A stretch of 64,000 nucleotides of DNA from Novosphingobium sp. (GTDB lineage Bacteria; Pseudomonadota; Alphaproteobacteria; Sphingomonadales; Sphingomonadaceae): positions 78,476 through 142,475 of the forward strand of contig NZ_JADZAT010000001.1 of the NCBI RefSeq assembly GCF_020852455.1, in the 5' to 3' direction. The translations under genes were made by a program, and so were the position numbers. Below are positions 6,153 to 34,655 of this stretch, in pieces. Each line of letters opens with the position of its first letter. Position 1 is the stretch's first letter. The notes beneath the pieces were generated by a model. It had not been told where the DNA came from. It saw nothing but the letters and a program-made list of their open reading frames with translations, and did no database searches.

Positions 6153-7018
6153 AGGAAGGCCCTCACTTCGGCCATGAACCGGTCGAACTGGTCGTGGTGC
6201 AGCCAGTGCCCGGCGTTCTCAAATTCGCTGACCCGCCAGTCCTTGAAGACCATTGCGCGCCCGTCCTTTTCGGGGTTTGAAGCCCACGAATCCGCTCCAT
6301 AAAGGAACAGGATCGGGCAGGTGATCGCGCTCCACAGCTCTTCCAGACGCTCCTCAGGAGTGTCTTCGAACGGCCAGTTGTTGAGATAGGGATCGAACTT
6401 CCAGCTCCAGGTACCGTCTTCGTTGCGACTGGCGCCATGGATCGTGAGGTGGCGGGCCTGCTCGTCGGTCAGGAAGCCGTTTTCCTCTTTCATGCGGGCA
6501 TAAGCGGCTTCGATCGATTCATAGCGGCGCGGGATCCGACCGGACGATTTGCGGCGCTCGTCGATCCATTTGCGAAAGCGGTTGGCATAGCCTTCGGCTT
6601 CCCGCCGGGCGCGAACATCGGGTGATGGGCCAAGCCCTTCGATATTGACCAACTTGCGGACCTTTTCCGGGTACAGACCGGTAAAGCGGGTGGCGATATT
6701 GCCGCCCAGCGAATGTGCCACGATCGTCACCTGATCGTGCCCCAGCGTGTGGACCAGCTGGGCAAAGTCATAGACGAAGGCGTTCATTTCATAGTTGCCA
6801 TCGGGCACCCAGGCGCTGTCGCCGTGGCCGCGCAGATCAGGAGCGATCACGTGCCAGTCCCTGGCCAGTTCCTCGGCCACCCAGTCCCAGCTGCGGCAAT
6901 GGTCGCGCCCGCCGTGCTGGAGGATCAGCGGCGGTGCCTCCGGATTACCCCAATCGACATAGTGGAGGCGCAGGCGCTGCGAGATGAAGCTGTTGGCGGT
7001 CGGTCCGTGCGGTGTCAT
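6149..7018 (-). CDS. Alpha/beta fold hydrolase
   Basis: LQHGGRDH, APDLRGHGDS, AHSLGG nucleophile elbow, AGHWLHHD. Start at ATG 7018. Confidence 0.88.
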   Translation of the reverse strand: MTPHGPTANSFISQRLRLHYVDWGNPEAPPLILQHGGRDHCRSWDWVAEELARDWHVIAPDLRGHGDSAWVPDGNYEMNAFVYDFAQLVHTLGHDQVTIVAHSLGGNIATRFTGLYPEKVRKLVNIEGLGPSPDVRARREAEGYANRFRKWIDERRKSSGRIPRRYESIEAAYARMKEENGFLTDEQARHLTIHGASRNEDGTWSWKFDPYLNNWPFEDTPEERLEELWSAITCPILFLYGADSWASNPEKDGRAMVFKDWRVSEFENAGHWLHHDQFDRFMAEVRAFL

Positions 7019-7037
7019 GCTTGGCGCTTTGCGCGCA

Positions 7038-7745
7038 TCATAAGCCGAATTCAAGGCCGATCCTGAACTGCCCCTTGGTGTCGTCGCGCGCTTTGCCGAG
7101 CGTGAAGAGGTAACCTGCGCGCAAGTTGATTGAAGGTTCGATTTCATAGCCAATGATCGGGCCAAGCGCATGGCCGCCGTGCGGCAAAAGGCGATCAAAA
7201 CTGCCGAACTCGCCAAAGCCTTGCAGCCCTAGCCGCCATTTCGGCAGGACTTGATAATCACCGCTGAACGCATAACCGAGTTCGACACTTTCACCGCTGG
7301 CCAGTTCGCGGGTGGCGATCAGGTTGAACCGCAGGTTCATGCGGCCACGGTCATGTTCGAGGATGAAGCGCGCTTCCACAGCGTCGGGCGCGTCAATCCC
7401 GATGTCATAGGTGGCATAAAGCGCTGAATCGATTGGGCCCAGTTTGCCCAGCGCGAACAGCACTTCTGCACCGACTGTTTCGACCTTGCGACTTGTTCCG
7501 GGTTGGCGTGCAAAGCTGGCCTGTCCGCCGATCCGCACCCGATCGCTCAGTCCATGGGTAATGCCGATCTGCAGCAAGTCCTCGCCCCCTGCCGGCCCGC
7601 TGTCCAGACGGTCATAAAACAAGGCGGCATCAATTGATCCGCTTTCAACTGTCGCTCCATCGGCATCGTCGCCGCGCCCGGGCGTTGCGAGGGCTGGACT
7701 GGCAGTCAGCACCAGTGAAATGGCAAGGGCAGCAAGGCGCAGCAT
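7038..7745 (-). CDS. Exported protein, probable outer-membrane beta-barrel
   Basis: Signal peptide MLRLAALAISLVLTASPALA, alternating amphipathic strands, terminal FRIGLEFGL. Confidence 0.6.
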   Translation of the reverse strand: MLRLAALAISLVLTASPALATPGRGDDADGATVESGSIDAALFYDRLDSGPAGGEDLLQIGITHGLSDRVRIGGQASFARQPGTSRKVETVGAEVLFALGKLGPIDSALYATYDIGIDAPDAVEARFILEHDRGRMNLRFNLIATRELASGESVELGYAFSGDYQVLPKWRLGLQGFGEFGSFDRLLPHGGHALGPIIGYEIEPSINLRAGYLFTLGKARDDTKGQFRIGLEFGL

Positions 7746-27616: not shown

Positions 27617-29509
27617 ATGTGCGGAATCGCCGGCATCTTTCACCTCAGCACGCCCAAGCCGGTCGATCCGGCGCGGGTTGAACGGATGTGCGATGCACTG
27701 GCGCATCGCGGACCCGATGGGGCCGGGGTGTGGACCGCGCCGGGGGTCGGGCTGGGCCACCGCCGCCTGTCAATCATCGATATCGCCGGATCGCCGCAGC
27801 CGATGGCCTCCAGCGATCAGGCCGCGATGCTGGTGTTCAACGGTGAGATCTACAACTTTCGCGAACTGCGCGACGAGCTGAAGGGCGCCGGAGCCGAATT
27901 CCATACCGATGGCGATAGCGAGGTTATCCTTGCCGCCTGGCAGCGCTGGGGCCCGGCTTGCGTATCGCGATTACACGGGATGTTCGCCTTCGCGATCTAT
28001 GACCAGCGCGAACGGACGCTGTTCATGGCCCGCGACCGGCTTGGCGTGAAGCCGCTGTTCTATGCCCCGCTCAGCGATGGCAGCCTGGCCTTTGCGTCCG
28101 AACTCAAGGGCCTGCTGGCCCATCCGCTGCTGCGGCGCGAAATCGACCCGCTGGCGGTGGAGGACTACCTGACCTGGGGCTATGTCCCCGATCATCGCTC
28201 GATCCTGCAAGGCGTCCACAAATTGCCGGCCGGGCACACCCTGCTGCTGCGGCATGATGCGCCGCTGCCGGCGCCCTCCCAGTACTGGGACGTCAGCTTT
28301 GCCGAACGGCGCAAGGGCCGCGCCGCAGATCTTGAGGCAGAACTGCTGCACCTACTGCGCCAGGCGGTAACCTCGCGGATGGTTTCGGACGTACCGCTGG
28401 GCGCGTTCCTGTCGGGCGGGGTGGACAGTTCCTCGGTCGTCGCGCTGATGGCCGAGGCCAGCCGCGATCCGGTCAAGACCTGCTCGATCGGCTTTGACGT
28501 CGCGGCGGCGGATGAAACCTCCTATGCCGAGCAGGTCGCCCGCCGGTTTGCGACCGAGCACCGGGCGCTGCAGGTTTCGCCTGACGATTTCGCGCACCTC
28601 GATGCGCTGGTCGGGATGTTTGACGAACCCTTTGCAGACGCGTCGGCCCTGCCGACCTGGCGGGTTTGCCAGCTGGCGCGCGAGACGGTGACCGTCGCCT
28701 TGTCGGGCGATGGCGCTGACGAGGCTTTTGCCGGTTACCGGCGGCAGGTGTTTCAACATGGCGAGGATCGCGTCCGCTCCTTGCTGCCGCAGGCGCTGCG
28801 CGGACCGGTGTTCGGTGCGCTGGGGGCGATCTATCCCAAGGCGGATTGGGCGCCGCAACCGCTGCGCGCCAAGACCACCTTGCTCTCGCTGGCCGGGACG
28901 TCAGAGGCCGGCTATGCCCGCGCAGTCTCGATCCTGCCGCCCGAGCTGCGCCAGACGCTCTATTCGCCCGAGTTTTTGCGGCTGCGCGGTGACTACCGGG
29001 CCGAACAGGCGTTCGAGGACATGATGCGCCAGGCCCCGGCTCGTTCCGGGCTGGACCGCGCACAATATGCCGACCTCAAGTTCTGGCTGCCGGGCGATAT
29101 CCTGACCAAGGTCGATCGCACCAGCATGGCGGTGAGCCTGGAAGCGCGCGAGCCGCTGCTCGACCACCGGCTGATCGAATTCGCCGCCAGTCTGCCTGAA
29201 GGGCTGCGGGTACGGCGGGGCGAGGGCAAGTGGCTGCTCAAGAAGACGATGCAGCGCTACCTTCCGCAAGACATCCTCTATCGGCCCAAGCAGGGGTTCG
29301 TAACCCCGATATCGCAGTGGTTCCGCGGCCCCCTGGCTGAAACCGCGCGCTCGATCGCTTCAAGCGATGCCCTGGTGCGAACCGGATGGTTCGACGGGCA
29401 GCGCCTGGCCAGCATGGCCGATGCGCATATCGCGGGTCGATCGGATCATGGACGGATGCTGTGGCAACTTGTCATGCTCGACAAGTGCCTGGGCCAGATC
29501 CTGGGCTGA
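27617..29509 (+). CDS. XrtA/PEP-CTERM system amidotransferase (asparagine synthase-like)
   Basis: MCGIAG (Cys2 Ntn), HRGPD, FNGEIYN, LSGGVDSS, SLEAREPLLD, KQGF. Confidence 0.93.
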   Translation: MCGIAGIFHLSTPKPVDPARVERMCDALAHRGPDGAGVWTAPGVGLGHRRLSIIDIAGSPQPMASSDQAAMLVFNGEIYNFRELRDELKGAGAEFHTDGDSEVILAAWQRWGPACVSRLHGMFAFAIYDQRERTLFMARDRLGVKPLFYAPLSDGSLAFASELKGLLAHPLLRREIDPLAVEDYLTWGYVPDHRSILQGVHKLPAGHTLLLRHDAPLPAPSQYWDVSFAERRKGRAADLEAELLHLLRQAVTSRMVSDVPLGAFLSGGVDSSSVVALMAEASRDPVKTCSIGFDVAAADETSYAEQVARRFATEHRALQVSPDDFAHLDALVGMFDEPFADASALPTWRVCQLARETVTVALSGDGADEAFAGYRRQVFQHGEDRVRSLLPQALRGPVFGALGAIYPKADWAPQPLRAKTTLLSLAGTSEAGYARAVSILPPELRQTLYSPEFLRLRGDYRAEQAFEDMMRQAPARSGLDRAQYADLKFWLPGDILTKVDRTSMAVSLEAREPLLDHRLIEFAASLPEGLRVRRGEGKWLLKKTMQRYLPQDILYRPKQGFVTPISQWFRGPLAETARSIASSDALVRTGWFDGQRLASMADAHIAGRSDHGRMLWQLVMLDKCLGQILG

Positions 29510-29522
29510 TTCCTGACAGCAC

Positions 29523-29554
29523 AAACGAAAAGGCCCTGGCTTTCGCCAGGGCCT
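29523..29554 (-). terminator. Rho-independent terminator with its U-tract on the minus strand
   Basis: Perfect 10-bp stem AGGCCCTGGC-TTTC-GCCAGGGCCT (29531-29554). On the minus strand it is followed by TTTCGTTT; on the plus strand by AAAC. Confidence 0.8.
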
Positions 29555-29576
29555 AAACTCGTTTCTGGAGATAGCC

Positions 29577-29633
29577 TTAGCGGCCCGAGCTGCCGCGCAG
29601 CGAATCCCAGAATTCCTTGAAGAAACCGGTCAT
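29577..29633 (-). CDS. 18-aa small peptide MTGFFKEFWDSLRGSSGR (below the ORF-track cutoff)
   Basis: CAGGAGGctattATG RBS, TAA stop, codons typical of this genome (TTC, AAG, CTG, CGC, GGC), upstream promoter and a strand-matched terminator. Confidence 0.75.
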   Translation of the reverse strand: MTGFFKEFWDSLRGSSGR

Positions 29634-29682
29634 AATAGCCTCCTGAAAGCCTTGCCGTCAGTAAGGGCTGGCTCTCGACGCT

Positions 29683-29710
29683 AGGATAATGAATTCTTAA
29701 CCACTTGCAA
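29683..29710 (-). promoter_or_regulatory. Sigma70-like promoter TTGCAA-N16-TATCCT overlapping a CtrA-like TTAA-N7-TTAT box
   Basis: Minus strand reads TTGCAAgtggTTAAgaattcaTTATCCT, 49 nt upstream of the small-peptide ATG. Confidence 0.55.
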
Positions 29711-29886
29711 TAGCGAAAAATTCACCATCAGCTATCCTGGCTATTCAAGAAATTACCTCATTGATTCAGATGGTTGTGCGATTTCTGCTGGAAGTGCTCG
29801 GCGTTAACCCGCGAATCTCTGGGAACCGCTGGCAACGAATCGATGGAATTTGATCAGCGCTAGGGGAACGCAACGGCCCCCGTAGA

Positions 29887-32193
29887 TCAAGCCGCGTGTA
29901 GGCGGTTGTTCGAATTGAGCAGCGCTTCCAGCGCTTCGATCCGCATTGGCTTGGCCAGGTAATAGCCCTGGGCAATATCGCAATGGATCGCTCGCAACAG
30001 TTCAAGCGTTTCGGGATCCTCGATCCCTTCGGCGATCACGCGCCGGCCGAGACCATGCGCCAGTTCGATCGTCGATTCGACCAGCAGCATGTCGCTGGGG
30101 TTGGCCACCAGGTTGGCGACAAACCGGCGGTCAATCTTGATTTCCTGGCATGGAACCGACCGCAGGTAGTCGAGCGTTGCGTTCCCGGTGCCATAATCAT
30201 CGATTGAGAGTTCGATCCCCAGCGCGGCGATTGCTTCCAGGTTTGCCGCAACGATCGTGTGTTCGGCAAACGGCGCGGATTCGGTAACTTCAAGCGTCAG
30301 GCTGCTGGCGGGGAAGCCGTATTTGGCCAAGGTCAGCAGGATCTGCTGGGGCAGTTGCGGATTTTCGAGCAGTACCGCCGAGATGTTGACGCTGAGCCGG
30401 AAGGTCGGGTTGGCGGCCACCAGGTGTCGGGTCGACTGGATCGACTGCTCAAGCACATAGAAGGTCAGGCGGGTAATACGGTTGTATTCTTCCGCCGCGA
30501 GCACGAAGGCTTCGGGCGAAATTGCCCCCCGGGTCGGGTGCAGCCAGCGGACCAGCGCTTCGGCGCCGACGATCCGGTCGGTCTTGAGGTTGAATTGCGG
30601 CTGGAACGCCACCCAGATGTCGCCATTGTCGATCGCGGCATCGAGTTCGCTCATCAGCGAGAGTTCCCAGGCGCTTTCATCGTCGTTTTCGCTGTTGTTG
30701 AACTGGACCAACTGGTGCTTTGCTGCGGCCTGGTCTGCGGCCAGGAGCGCACGCCCGATCCTGCTTGCAACTGGCCTGGCCAGCACGGTGTCTACCCCGA
30801 AGACCACATGGATATCGAGCTTGCGGCCCTGGATAATCAGATGGCTTTCGATCAGTTGGGCAAGACCTGCCAGGTGACCGGCGATCTCGTCGTCGGGCAG
30901 CTTGGGACCCAGCCAATAGAGCACGTCTTCGGCCTGATAGAAGGTGGTCTTTTCGCCCGGCAAGGTAAGCCGCCTGGCAAGTTCGGTAATCAGATCGGCT
31001 TCAACGGCCTCTGGAAAGCTGGCGCAAACCGCAGCGTAGTTCCGAATTCGCATCGCCACAATCGGGCGACTGGCAGCGGCGGGCTCTTCGCGCAGCGCCG
31101 ACAGATTAGGCAACAGGGTATTCGCATTCTGTCGGCGGGCTTCCGCTACGTCGCGCAGATTGTTTGCGCGATAGGCAATCACGCCGAACAGGAGGATCGC
31201 CGGAACATAGTAGGCATCAACAAGCAGGCTATCCAGGATGAAGGGTACGACCAGTGCCAGCGACAGGCCGAACAGGACTATTTGCATAGCCCGGCGTCTT
31301 GAGGATGTTCGCAACAAGGCTATTGAAAGCATGGCAGCGACAAGCAGGATCGGAAGTCCGCCAGCCGAAGTCGGCGATCCTTCACGCAAGGTTTGAGCGC
31401 CAATGGCATGCCCATAAACGCCAGCCACCCAACCTTGACCAACAATCTGGGTAAAATCGTTCTCCGTTTGCGCGGTCACCCCAAGCAGAACATCTTTGTT
31501 CTTGAAGAAATTTTGCGGGATTTTTCCGTCAATCACATCAGCCAGGCTGATGGTCGGGATGGTCGAAGCCTGGATTGACCAATCCGGTCGGTACCAGTCG
31601 TCGAGTTGTGCTGCGCGGCCGGCCATGTCTCCTGAGATGGAGGGAACCGTTTGCCCTTCGATTTTTCCACCATACCCCAGGCGAAGCGTGAGCTGAAAAG
31701 GTGATTTAAGATTTGCGAACGAGCGCAACGGCGCTTTCGATCGAAAGGCGTCGATCGGCACCAGCCTTACTTCTTCACCAGACATATTCTGGTAGCTATC
31801 TGCGCCGATAAACACACGGCCATAGTGCCGCGTGAGTGCCGACGCGAAGCTTTGGTCACCCTCGGGATCAAGCGGTAGCCGGAATGACTCGTCAAAATAC
31901 ACCCGTTTGGCGCCACCGGCGAAGGCCTTGTCTAAAAGGTCTGCGTTGTGCTGACGGGAATAATAGCTTGTTTTGAAGCGCTGCACCGTCCGATCGTCGA
32001 TCGCAACGACGACAACAGATTTATCAGCTGGGCGCGCTCTGATCGTGTCACGCAGACCGCGAAAGGCGTCTTCGATCGGCGACGTGAAGTTGGCAATTGC
32101 GGCCAGCAGGCAAATCACAAACGGCCACAGGAACAGCCGCAGCCGCGAAACTGGCCCCTTTGTCCTGGTTTTGCGCCGGAATGGCCAGATCAT
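29887..32193 (-). CDS. CHASE2 sensor - 3 TM - degenerate GGDEF - EAL c-di-GMP phosphodiesterase
   Basis: VVVVAIDD CHASE2 start, KNKDVLLG. GGDEF motif absent. EAL motifs intact: GAEALVRW, VNIS, LEVTES, IDDYGTG, EIKIDRRFV, AEGIE, AQGY. Confidence 0.9.
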   Translation of the reverse strand: MIWPFRRKTRTKGPVSRLRLFLWPFVICLLAAIANFTSPIEDAFRGLRDTIRARPADKSVVVVAIDDRTVQRFKTSYYSRQHNADLLDKAFAGGAKRVYFDESFRLPLDPEGDQSFASALTRHYGRVFIGADSYQNMSGEEVRLVPIDAFRSKAPLRSFANLKSPFQLTLRLGYGGKIEGQTVPSISGDMAGRAAQLDDWYRPDWSIQASTIPTISLADVIDGKIPQNFFKNKDVLLGVTAQTENDFTQIVGQGWVAGVYGHAIGAQTLREGSPTSAGGLPILLVAAMLSIALLRTSSRRRAMQIVLFGLSLALVVPFILDSLLVDAYYVPAILLFGVIAYRANNLRDVAEARRQNANTLLPNLSALREEPAAASRPIVAMRIRNYAAVCASFPEAVEADLITELARRLTLPGEKTTFYQAEDVLYWLGPKLPDDEIAGHLAGLAQLIESHLIIQGRKLDIHVVFGVDTVLARPVASRIGRALLAADQAAAKHQLVQFNNSENDDESAWELSLMSELDAAIDNGDIWVAFQPQFNLKTDRIVGAEALVRWLHPTRGAISPEAFVLAAEEYNRITRLTFYVLEQSIQSTRHLVAANPTFRLSVNISAVLLENPQLPQQILLTLAKYGFPASSLTLEVTESAPFAEHTIVAANLEAIAALGIELSIDDYGTGNATLDYLRSVPCQEIKIDRRFVANLVANPSDMLLVESTIELAHGLGRRVIAEGIEDPETLELLRAIHCDIAQGYYLAKPMRIEALEALLNSNNRLHAA

Positions 32194-32525: not shown

Positions 32526-34655
32526 GTGATGAATTGCCCGATCGATCGTTTCCTCGTCTCTGCTGTGGCCCTTGCGGCTGCCAGCCTGGCCCTCCCGGCC
32601 CAAGCACAGGACCAGACCGGAGGCGATGAACCCGACTATCACGATCACGGCGATGCCGAGATTGTCGTCACCGGGATGTTGCGAACCAGCCGTCAGGATG
32701 CGCTGTCAGGCGTCGCGGTTGTTAGCGGAGAGGAACTGACCGCAGCGATCCGGCCATCGATCGGGGATACGCTGGCGCGCACGCCAGGGGTCAGCGCGAC
32801 TTCGTTCGGGCCTTCGGCATCGCGCCCGGTCTTGCGCGGCCTGCAGGGTGAACGCGTGCGGGTGCTGTCGAACGGGATCGGCTCGATCGACGTTTCCAAC
32901 ACCTCGGCCGATCACGCCCCGGCAATCAATCCGGCGCTGGCGCAGCGGGTTGAAGTGCTGCGCGGTCCGCAATCGCTGCAATACGGCTCGGCCGCGATTG
33001 GCGGTGTGGTGAACGTCATCGACAAGCGGATACCCGAATCGGTTCCGGATGAACCGGTGCATCTCTCTGCGCTTGGCACCTATGGTTCGGCGGCGGACGA
33101 ACGCAGCGGCGCGGGATCGCTTGAGCTTCCGCTTGGTGACGGATGGGTTGGTCATATCGACGCAAGCTATCTGAAGACGAGCGATCTGCGGATCGGCGGC
33201 TTTGCCCTGACGCCTGAATTGCGAGCCGAAGCGCTTGGGTCGAGCCTGCTGCCACCCGATCCCTTGGCGGATCCCGAAATTGACTTTGCTGCCAATGCCG
33301 TGCTGGCAGGGCGCCTGCCGAACACTGCGGCCCGCAACTGGTCGGTCGGGGCAGGGCTGGCCTATATCAACGATGGCGGCAACATCGGCGTGGCCTACAG
33401 CCACCTCGATTCACTCTATGGAGTGCCGCCGCGGCTCGCCACTGAGCCCGGCGAAGGGCAGGAAGCACCCCGCCTGCACATGCGGCAGGACCGGATTGAT
33501 GCCCGGGCTGAGCTTGAACTGGGCGAGGGCCTGTTTGACAAGCTGTCGGCGCGATACGCCTTTGGCGACTATTCGCATGCCGAGCTTGAACCGGATGGTG
33601 CGATCGGCACCACTTTCCTCAATCAGGGTATGGAAGCCCGGCTCGATATATCGCAGACCGAACGCGGGGGATGGAAGGGCGCCAGCGGTATCCAGTTCAT
33701 GAACCGCGACTTCAACGTGATTGGCGACGAAGCGTTTCTGCCTCGCAATTTCACCGAACAATTCGGGGTCTTTACCCTGCAGCAGGTCGACAGCGGACCC
33801 TGGCTGATCGAGGCGGGTCTGCGATACGAGCACAGCAGTCTGGATTCGCTGCCCGAGGCCAGCCAGCCGCAGTTCTTTTCGGGGCGACGCGCCTTCGATG
33901 CCTGGTCGGGGGCATTGGGTGCAGCCTATGATTTCGCGCCGGGCTGGAAATTCGGGCTGAACCTGTCGCGGGTGGAACGCGCGCCGTCGGCCGAGGAACT
34001 GTTTGCCAATGGTCCGCACCATGGCACCGAATCCTATGAGCTTGGCGATCCTGCCCTGACCAAGGAGCGGGCGGTGAGCGTTGAAGCGATCCTGCGCGGC
34101 CAGCACGACGGTCTGACTCTGGATGTCTCAGCCTACCACAGCTGGTTCGCAAATTTCGTCTATGACGAGCGCACCGGCGCGATTGTGGACGGACTGCCCG
34201 TATACCAGATCCGCCAGGGTGATGCCCGGTTGTGGGGTTTCGAAGTACAAGGCAGCCTGGAACTGGCGGAAAGCGGTCTGTGGACCTTCTCGGTCGATGG
34301 GCTGGCGGACTATGTGCACGCCAGTATCGACGGAGCGGGGCCGGCACCGCGAATTCCGCCGCTGCGCTTTATGGGCGGACTGCGGGCCAAGTCGGCCAAG
34401 TTCGATGCCGGGATCGAGGTGGAGCGCGTAACCGCACAGCGCCGTACCGCCGCGAACGAAACCGAGACACCCGGATACACCATGGTCAACCTTGAGCTGG
34501 CCTGGCGTCCCAGCGGCAACGACAGTCCGATCAGCCTGGTGCTCAGCGCCAGCAACCTTTTCGATGTCGAGGCCCGCCGCCACGCTTCGTTCCTGAAGGA
34601 TTACGCGCCGCTAGCGGGCCGTGATATCCGGCTGACCGTGCGGCTGGAAATCTAG
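32526..34655 (+). CDS. TonB-dependent receptor, ZnuD-like
   Basis: Signal peptide, YHDHGDAEIVVTG (TonB-box region), ASRPVLRGL, VEVLRGP, GPHHGT, C-terminal LAGRDIRLTVRLEI. Confidence 0.9.
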   Translation: MMNCPIDRFLVSAVALAAASLALPAQAQDQTGGDEPDYHDHGDAEIVVTGMLRTSRQDALSGVAVVSGEELTAAIRPSIGDTLARTPGVSATSFGPSASRPVLRGLQGERVRVLSNGIGSIDVSNTSADHAPAINPALAQRVEVLRGPQSLQYGSAAIGGVVNVIDKRIPESVPDEPVHLSALGTYGSAADERSGAGSLELPLGDGWVGHIDASYLKTSDLRIGGFALTPELRAEALGSSLLPPDPLADPEIDFAANAVLAGRLPNTAARNWSVGAGLAYINDGGNIGVAYSHLDSLYGVPPRLATEPGEGQEAPRLHMRQDRIDARAELELGEGLFDKLSARYAFGDYSHAELEPDGAIGTTFLNQGMEARLDISQTERGGWKGASGIQFMNRDFNVIGDEAFLPRNFTEQFGVFTLQQVDSGPWLIEAGLRYEHSSLDSLPEASQPQFFSGRRAFDAWSGALGAAYDFAPGWKFGLNLSRVERAPSAEELFANGPHHGTESYELGDPALTKERAVSVEAILRGQHDGLTLDVSAYHSWFANFVYDERTGAIVDGLPVYQIRQGDARLWGFEVQGSLELAESGLWTFSVDGLADYVHASIDGAGPAPRIPPLRFMGGLRAKSAKFDAGIEVERVTAQRRTAANETETPGYTMVNLELAWRPSGNDSPISLVLSASNLFDVEARRHASFLKDYAPLAGRDIRLTVRLEI

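Follow-up and report, generated by a model that had tools for sequence, protein, structure and literature searches.

A conserved micro-gene tied to CHASE2-EAL phosphodiesterase genes in Sphingomonadales

Standard annotation overlooks genes of 11-18 codons, and the locus described here raises the question whether an open reading frame (ORF) of 18 codons, lying downstream of a gene for a CHASE2-EAL phosphodiesterase of cyclic di-GMP (c-di-GMP), is such a gene and what its product might do. The locus is part of a stretch of 64,000 nucleotides of a Novosphingobium sp. contig (NZ_JADZAT010000001.1, positions 78,476 to 142,475), hereafter the window, and the coordinates of the micro-gene are given in window numbering, on the minus strand. 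The sequencing runs that contain this region are wastewater and sludge metagenomes. By comparison of related loci, the micro-gene is real and conserved, it belongs to a family that is new to annotation, and it is tied to the CHASE2-EAL phosphodiesterase and not to the exosortase/exopolysaccharide (EPS) locus on its other side.

The initial annotation of this DNA had proposed an independent, unannotated gene with its own promoter, ribosome-binding site, 18-residue ORF and terminator, flanked by the CHASE2-EAL gene on one side and by a convergent EPS operon on the other. The sequence and coordinates of these elements and the description of the surroundings were confirmed (Table 1). The hairpin had been assigned to the minus strand, and a terminator scan found its T-run on that strand only. 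The start of the micro-ORF is unambiguous, with an in-frame stop 8 codons 5' and no alternative start between that stop and the ATG. The promoter hexamers agree with the consensus at 8/12 positions, which is under the cut-off of the scanner, and the promoter was therefore unreported in the window alone. The same window contained one terminator-like site, against 2.0 expected by chance. Taken alone, the promoter and terminator signals of the window are weak and not compelling, and they are what could be said in favour of a chance intergenic ORF that is not a gene. The probability of this explanation is next to nil, as it is refuted by a unit conserved in 45 loci and five lineages, with in-frame insertions and deletions and protein-level substitutions. 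It is because of this conservation in 45 related loci, and not because of a match to consensus signals, that the unit is more than a product of chance.

Table 1. Elements of the micro-gene and its two flanking genes, in window numbering
Feature	Positions	Strand	Basis or remark
Upstream element ATGGTGAA	29721..29728	-	kept in Novosphingobium-type loci
-35 hexamer TTGCAA	29705..29710	-	TTGnnn kept at this position in all lineages
Promoter spacer, 16 nt, GTGGTTAAGAATTCAT	between -35 and -10	-	read from the sequence
TTAA-N7-TTAA-like box TTAAGAATTCATTAT, operator-like, candidate CtrA site	29686..29700	-	covers the spacer and the start of the -10
-10 hexamer TATCCT	29683..29688	-	relatives align TATCCT, TAAAAT, TATAAT or TATACT
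5' leader stem-loop of the predicted transcript	29645..29676	-	dG -13.7 kcal/mol, z = -2.26
Shine-Dalgarno (SD) sequence AGGAGG, 5 nt before the ATG	29639..29644	-	GGAG core in relatives
Micro-ORF, 18 codons and TAA, product MTGFFKEFWDSLRGSSGR	29577..29633	-	ATG at 29633, TAA at 29579-29577; family motif
3' spacer, 22 nt, with semi-conserved ACGAGTTT (family GAGTTTYGAAA), before the terminator	29555..29576	-	alignment
Intrinsic terminator, 10-bp GC-rich hairpin (29554-29531), then T-tract TTTTCGTTTGT	29521..29554	-	scan and RNAalifold
CHASE2 - transmembrane - (degenerate GGDEF-like) - EAL c-di-GMP phosphodiesterase gene, upstream partner	29887..32193	-	Pfam CHASE2, EAL
XrtA/PEP-CTERM-system amidotransferase gene, convergent	27617..29509	+	TIGR03108, 985 bits against a cut-off of 817

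The unit was found directly 3' of the CHASE2-EAL gene, and co-oriented with it, in 45 of the 46 assessable sphingomonad loci, namely 34 distinct Novosphingobium-type loci, six of Sphingopyxis, three of Sphingorhabdus, one of Sphingomicrobium and one of an unplaced lineage. A further locus (L038) was left out of the 46, its contig stopping 147 nt past the stop codon. Promoter, ribosome-binding site and terminator all keep their positions in the 45 loci.

The genome collection, when scanned with the CHASE2-EAL protein, yielded 28 Novosphingobium/Sphingomonadaceae loci with protein identities of 56-72%, and most of these also carry the convergent AsnB-like gene of about 633 codons. All 28 intergenic regions present the same elements in the same order: ATGGTTAA; TTGC-N3-TGGTTA-N7-GTTA(TCCT/AAAT); a hairpin; AGGAG; ATG; a short ORF; and a GC-rich hairpin followed by a T-tract. 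An nhmmer profile of the unit gave one match in the window (E = 6e-29) and one per locus except in L005, a Novosphingobium metagenome-assembled genome with tandem units at 6611-6759 (MWDWLRDVGLGRR) and 6967-7076 (MWDWLKDVGARR), each with its own SD sequence and terminator. The closest relatives of the window enzyme (67-72% identity, exact-protein look-up) are accompanied by the peptides MWSYFERVFGR, MKTTRNWWQYIDRVLGR and MWTWLRVTFGR, which terminate in GR-stop, as does the window peptide.

The same arrangement was found in more distant lineages. In the six Sphingopyxis loci the CHASE2-EAL protein is 31-34% identical to that of the window, and a unit in the equivalent place encodes peptides of 20-21 residues (MAFWRWLGLGFGTGNGGSQA, MGWFWKFLGGGGTGNGGGSA, MAWIWKWVGGGGTGGGGLPA, MGWFWRFLGGTGTDSAGGQA, MGNFWSWLLGGGGSGNSSTRA). 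A context-free search of metagenome contigs, using the promoter pattern only, resulted in 29 matches, 7 of which were true units according to nhmmer. Five of the seven lie between CHASE2-EAL and amidotransferase genes, one (L046) is on a contig that ends before the upstream gene, and one (L048, Sphingorhabdus-type, GC content 55%) lies beside a CHASE2-EAL gene whose product has 26% identity to that of the window; it has the promoter TTGAGA-16-TATAAT and a 32-codon ORF (MKALEKAKQVERQAEGIWEWLFGGGRSAGGNG). In two further Sphingorhabdus loci the 32-codon gene is called by gene finders and labelled "hypothetical protein". The units of the Sphingomicrobium locus and of the unplaced lineage encode MKYKKATSARGLWSWLFGHGWSGAGGTG and MMKASKPARGIWDWYYEGGWGGSSPIG, respectively. 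The unit is thus kept with all its signals in at least five lineages while the partner enzyme has diverged to about 25% identity, and it is therefore under long-term selection. As far as sampled, the family is restricted to Sphingomonadales.

The peptides of the family are 11-35 residues long, and 11-25 residues in the Novosphingobium-type clade, where the consensus is [W/Y/F]-x-[W/Y/S]-[L/F/I]-x3-[F/L/V/T]-G-x-[R/K]-stop. The core common to the family consists of a hydrophobic or aromatic residue followed by W-x-aromatic(or Ser)-L/F/I, then x3-[F/L]-G-x-[R/K]-stop or a Gly-rich tail, the latter in the Sphingopyxis and Sphingorhabdus members. The FFKxF pattern noted in the window peptide did not hold up as a family trait; the conserved parts are the W-x-aromatic/Ser-Leu core and the G-x-R end. 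Every unit has a GGAG core (GGGG in L016) shortly 5' of the ATG.

Codon statistics were calculated on 16 distinct sequences with a common 11-codon core. The positional entropy was 0.75, 0.82 and 1.28 bits at codon positions 1, 2 and 3, respectively, the third position varying most, and the ratio of nonsynonymous to synonymous substitution rates (dN/dS) was about 0.5. With a nucleotide identity of 58%, the mean pairwise BLOSUM62 score per residue reached 3.21 in frame, versus 1.04 and 0.88 in the shifted frames, which hold stops in 3 and 5 sequences. The conserved Leu is encoded by CTT, CTG, CTA or TTG, and the aromatic positions swap TGG with TAC or TAT (for example TGG GAT TGG CTT versus TAC GAT TAT TTC); in many members the Trp positions hold Tyr, Phe or Ser. 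Where Ser replaces the second aromatic residue, in the subgroup of the window, its codon is TCG in the window, AGC in L003 and TCT in L001. All insertions and deletions are in frame; among them are N-terminal extensions of varied length, the longest of 18 codons, and an insertion of 33 nt right after the ATG in L026 (1374-1451), which yields a 25-residue peptide, MARIRKPVSRDLSVWSWLDRAFGNR, with the motif intact. On these comparisons the ORF is under protein-level selection and is very probably translated. Such a substitution pattern, together with in-frame insertions and deletions, is unlike that of the seed of a non-coding RNA.

The initial annotation had also drawn the window peptide as an amphipathic helix and likened it to the staphylococcal phenol-soluble modulins (PSMs), which raises the possibility of a surfactant or biofilm-structuring peptide. 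The face geometry is arithmetically right and the computed net charge of MTGFFKEFWDSLRGSSGR is indeed +1. However, the hydrophobic moment of the window peptide (0.39, z = 1.2) is matched by 13% of its 2000 shuffles, and in the family as a whole it does not exceed that of shuffled sequences (mean z 0.19, with z > 1 in 5/30 peptides). Many members have only 11-13 residues or end in a Gly-rich tail incompatible with a continuous helix, and no PSM match was obtained in Pfam at E <= 10 with 8 family peptides. The family has in common with the PSMs its small size, a formylmethionine that is likely retained and the lack of a signal peptide, but differs from them in its lengths, in the lack of homology and of conserved amphipathicity, in its taxonomic range and in that no Pmt-type exporter gene lies nearby. 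The analogy fails because helical amphipathicity is not a trait of the family, because its members are too short or too rich in Gly and because there is no PSM match; a surfactant role is unsupported, and we consider it extremely improbable. A type I toxin, that is a hydrophobic transmembrane peptide, was rejected as well, the mean Eisenberg hydrophobicity of the family being about 0 (-0.57 to +0.25) with charged residues throughout.

The peptide gene had been described as unannotated, and database searches bore this out. With 8 family peptides, padded with X if shorter than 20 residues, no Pfam or NCBIfam match was obtained at E <= 10. The Rfam matches obtained at E <= 10 over 29300-30100 are all sub-threshold and fall on terminator modules, and blastn found nothing similar to the region in the plasmid collection. 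When 5.8 billion proteins were searched through a word index with a 41-residue member as query, 11 clusters resulted, all of 32-35 residues and devoid of Pfam domains; a profile of the long form, run exhaustively with HMMER against 1.84 billion representatives, gave 8 clusters of that type and nothing else. Forms shorter than 30 residues are absent from protein databases, presumably because gene callers do not emit them. No earlier description was found in the literature on CHASE2/EAL proteins in sphingomonads, small proteins, ribosome profiling (Ribo-seq) or CHASE2 together with small proteins.

The CHASE2-EAL gene is the sole invariant neighbour of the unit across the five lineages, the other neighbours varying by genus. 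In the window it encodes a protein of 768 residues, in which Pfam places CHASE2 at 36-270 and EAL at 516-749, with membrane segments. The catalytic motifs of the EAL domain (EAL, N, EVTE, DDYGTG, K, EGIE and QG), read by eye following established knowledge of EAL enzymes, are present, and the protein is therefore probably an active c-di-GMP phosphodiesterase. The approximately 130 residues between the membrane segments and the EAL domain (about 380-510) have no Pfam match and appear by eye to be a degenerate GGDEF-like region from which the GGDEF motif is missing. We also considered the peptide as a mimic of the N-terminal tail of the phosphodiesterase (MIWPF... versus MIWSW...); this resemblance occurs in Novosphingobium only and fails in the other genera.

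The position of the micro-gene between an EPS operon and a c-di-GMP phosphodiesterase gene had been put forward as a clue to its function. The phosphodiesterase half of this argument stands, but the EPS/exosortase operon is not a conserved partner. The convergent plus-strand genes in the window are those of the XrtA/PEP-CTERM system: the amidotransferase, an exosortase A fused to EpsI and a PEP-CTERM/XrtA-system glycosyltransferase. The amidotransferase adjoins the unit in the Novosphingobium-type clade only, is missing from the loci of Sphingopyxis, Sphingorhabdus and Sphingomicrobium, and is not part of the unit. The Sphingopyxis loci, which have no exosortase genes, are flanked by a gene for acyl-CoA dehydrogenase and by nrdAB, the latter downstream, and the other neighbours in L048 encode a glycoside hydrolase family 3 (GH3) glycosidase and a major facilitator superfamily (MFS) transporter. 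A precursor of a lasso peptide, or of another ribosomally synthesized and post-translationally modified peptide (RiPP), matured by the AsnB-like neighbour was rejected: the neighbour scored 282 against a cut-off of 525 with the lasso cyclase model (TIGR03108: 985 against 817), it is absent in other genera, and peptides of 11-13 residues are too short to include a leader. Two Novosphingobium loci (L002:6800-8155 and L024:6807-8060) have as convergent gene, instead of the amidotransferase, a pyridoxal phosphate-dependent decarboxylase of the ornithine/diaminopimelate/arginine type. On the far side of the CHASE2-EAL gene, and divergent from it, lies a TonB-dependent receptor gene (window 32526-34655, plus strand), as is also the case in most of the closest relatives (L039-L042); in L038 the receptor gene is upstream yet co-oriented, and the other genera have no receptor gene at that position.

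The promoter of the unit follows the pattern TTGnnn ... TAnnnT in all lineages, with a perfect TATAAT in L048. Its spacer, of 16-17 nt in Novosphingobium-type and Sphingorhabdus-type loci, is unusually conserved for a sigma-70 promoter. A TTAA-N7-TTAA-like box was found at a fixed offset with at most 2 mismatches in 42/42 units, about half of which have no more than 1; the background is 0.86 and 0.09 matches per kb per strand, respectively, and the 64 kb of the window hold 3 matches at the stricter limit, this box being one of them. The upstream element has the family consensus ATGGTTAA, which is the reverse complement of TTAACCAT, a half-site of CtrA; the window matches this half-site with 1 mismatch. 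In Novosphingobium-type loci the element lies at a constant position, about 24 nt 5' of a second GGTTA element. CtrA is an alphaproteobacterial regulator of motility and biofilm formation. Its binding motifs, TTAA-N7-TTAA and the half-site TTAACCAT, mediate activation when near the -35 and repression when over the -10 (PMC6180460). In Sphingomonas, motility, EPS and c-di-GMP signalling, the last including a phosphodiesterase, are reported to be under CtrA control (PMC8921679, citing Francez-Charlot 2015). The promoter may be regulated, possibly by a CtrA-type factor, which we regard as a lead and not as a result.

Other motifs were noticed between the EAL stop codon and the promoter of the micro-ORF. 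The hexamer CGAATC (usually CGAATCA), which contains the CcrM site GANTC, is present in 25 of 29 of these intergenic regions (L001-L032), and in about 17 loci it lies 162-169 nt 5' of the -35, though the intervening sequence is not alignable. The window has instead two GATTC and one GAATC (29837-29841, 29813-29817 and 29763-29767, minus strand). Another short motif, yTGAww, is located some 45-50 nt 5' of ATGGTTAA. The stretch of constant length (about 140 nt) 5' of the promoter showed no consensus RNA structure on either strand.

Metatranscriptome assemblies contain the unit. A contig from sludge (X21) covers 29562-29729 at 94% identity and spans the promoter too, with neighbouring genes at equal depth; its eight listed differences from the window are all 5' of the ATG, two further ones not being shown. 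A second contig (X22, on L010) begins about 16 nt past the predicted transcription start site and continues beyond the terminator, and a third (X37), whose kind of library is not given, includes the promoter as well. Three raw-read runs gave 0 reads.

As the best reading of the whole, to which we give an even chance, the unit would be a separately transcribed and translated micro-protein that modulates the phosphodiesterase pathway under the control of a box-binding factor, with CtrA as the leading candidate. The peptide, of 18 residues here and 11-35 in relatives, would act as a cytoplasmic or membrane-peripheral modulator in the CHASE2-EAL pathway; it could bind the phosphodiesterase or one of its partners and so tune the hydrolysis of c-di-GMP, in the manner of the small-protein feedback regulators of membrane sensors, and its synthesis would be gated by a transcription factor acting on the conserved box. 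Among such regulators, MgrB and SafA, which act on PhoQ, and PmrR are proteins of 29-65 residues with a transmembrane helix, and their targets are histidine kinases. The family described here would share with them the very small size, an own regulated promoter and the proposed modulation of a membrane-bound signalling enzyme. It differs from them in that its members have 11-35 residues and no transmembrane segment, and in that the putative partner is a c-di-GMP phosphodiesterase, with an interaction deduced from synteny only.

Several observations weigh against this interpretation. The link between the unit and the phosphodiesterase is one of synteny alone, and in a distant CHASE2-EAL locus (L076, 25% identity) no such ORF was found within 5.2 kb. 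The -10 element falls on the second half of the TTAA box, part of whose conservation may be ordinary promoter constraint. The metatranscriptome contigs over the unit also span neighbouring genes or promoter DNA at similar depth. Finally, the RNA resembles a small RNA (sRNA), with one hairpin at its 5' end, another internally across the stop codon, and U-rich sequence ahead of the terminator, and the RNA itself could therefore be the effector. This makes a dual-function RNA the main rival.

According to this rival explanation, a transcript of about 150 nt would base-pair with other RNAs or titrate an RNA-binding protein, acting as a dual-function or mainly regulatory sRNA whose ORF is also translated. 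The predicted structures lend it some weight. A leader hairpin is predicted in 26/28 relatives (mean z -1.45), with differing stems (CTC/GAG versus CCC/GGG), and in most sequences the last codons and the stop codon take part in a second hairpin (mean z -1.41); between the two lies an unstructured middle. RNAalifold on a MAFFT alignment of 26 sequences recovers the terminator only, with a consensus of 12 pairs, 7 of which have compensatory changes, and the leader hairpins are not alignable by sequence. The 3' spacer, with its semi-conserved GAGTTTYGAAA, would fit an Hfq-type module by its position and its richness in U, and a 5' hairpin, a stop hairpin, a U-rich stretch and a strong terminator are the architecture expected of an Hfq-type sRNA. 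The weak, sub-threshold Rfam matches on the terminator module have been counted on the same side. Against it, no Rfam family is matched, and the unstructured middle is conserved as amino acids and not as nucleotides, which argues against a pairing seed there. Moreover, the predicted duplexes with CHASE2-EAL 5' regions show no preference for the cognate gene (mean -59.8 kcal/mol for cognate and -61.7 kcal/mol for non-cognate pairs, p = 0.95; other targets were not searched). Known dual-function RNAs, such as SgrS/SgrT, Spot 42/SpfP (15 residues), AzuCR/AzuC (28 residues) and RNAIII/hld, are short independent RNAs with a terminator, structured ends and a tiny translated ORF, as the predicted transcript would be; the present family differs from them in the amino-acid-level conservation of its unstructured part, in that no pairing target or seed was found with the CHASE2-EAL 5' regions, and in lacking Rfam membership. 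Altogether, we consider a regulatory RNA of this kind unlikely.

The hairpin at the stop codon deserves a description of its own. In most relatives it forms by pairing of the final 2-5 codons with the stop codon itself or with bases immediately past it, which places the stop in the loop or in the 3' arm (for example L021, TTCGGCGAACGCTGAA, and L007, GGTCGTCGTTAAAACGACC; 29577-29600 in the window), and the hairpin persists while its pairing partner changes between clades.

A short Trp-rich ORF followed by a terminator, with a hairpin that overlaps the stop codon, might also suggest a cis-acting leader, an attenuator or an arrest peptide governing read-through into the gene that follows. The Novosphingobium-type loci, however, have a convergent next gene and none downstream that is co-oriented, and in the other genera the downstream genes vary. 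Stop codon and terminator stem are 20-27 nt apart, the folds showed no antiterminator, and there is no invariant run of regulatory codons, Trp being replaceable by Tyr, Phe or Ser. A comparable known system is peTrpL/rnTrpL of Sinorhizobium and Agrobacterium, in which a Trp-rich leader peptide of 14 residues has a function in trans, trpL being located upstream of the trp genes as part of an attenuator. Both are alphaproteobacterial, of similar size, with adjacent or near-adjacent Trp and potentially trans-acting, but the unit described here has no downstream cistron, tolerates other residues in place of Trp and has a phosphodiesterase gene as its neighbour. A cis-acting role is thus very improbable.

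Two further proposals place the peptide outside the cell. CHASE2 is an extracytoplasmic sensor domain for which, to our knowledge, no ligand has been described, and a sensor gene with an adjacent, separately promoted peptide gene parallels the cassettes of Rgg/SHP and ComR/ComS. An exported leaderless peptide, whole or trimmed to its W-motif core, might thus be sensed by the periplasmic CHASE2 domain as an autocrine or quorum input to c-di-GMP; the boundary A-[E/R]-G | hydrophobic-W common to the long forms could be a processing site. The initial annotation had similarly invoked Gram-positive pheromones, and of this analogy only the arrangement of the genes remains: the peptides have no signal peptide or double-glycine leader, those of 11-13 residues are too short to include one, and in no lineage does a conserved transporter or peptidase gene lie next to the pair. 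The receptors of Rgg/SHP, ComR/ComS and PlcR/PapR are cytoplasmic RRNPP proteins with tetratricopeptide repeats (TPR), and their peptides, some of which have W-W or C-terminal GG motifs, leave the cell with processing by PptAB/Eep and return to it through Opp. The likeness consists in a short peptide gene with its own promoter beside a sensor gene; here, in contrast, the sensor is a CHASE2-EAL membrane enzyme of a Gram-negative host and not an RRNPP/TPR receptor. Nothing found speaks for secretion, which is at present unsupported. Such an exported input to c-di-GMP appears improbable, and it is decidedly improbable that a released leaderless micro-protein is the cognate CHASE2 ligand of the neighbouring phosphodiesterase. 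If true, this would mean a peptide autoinducer wired to c-di-GMP turnover in a Gram-negative bacterium and the first defined ligand of CHASE2.

Returning to the micro-protein as an intracellular modulator of the phosphodiesterase pathway, we consider it likely, from the comparative evidence, that the unit is a new small regulator of the switch between biofilm and motility. Sensor-linked c-di-GMP phosphodiesterases set the decision between the motile state and biofilm or floc formation, and no micro-protein partner of such an enzyme has been described in the families and papers that were searched. If the peptide modulates the phosphodiesterase or reports to it, it would represent a new layer of c-di-GMP control in bacteria that are important for activated-sludge flocculation and bioremediation, and it would be a point of access to CHASE2, a sensor domain that is still an orphan, in a system small enough for quick testing.

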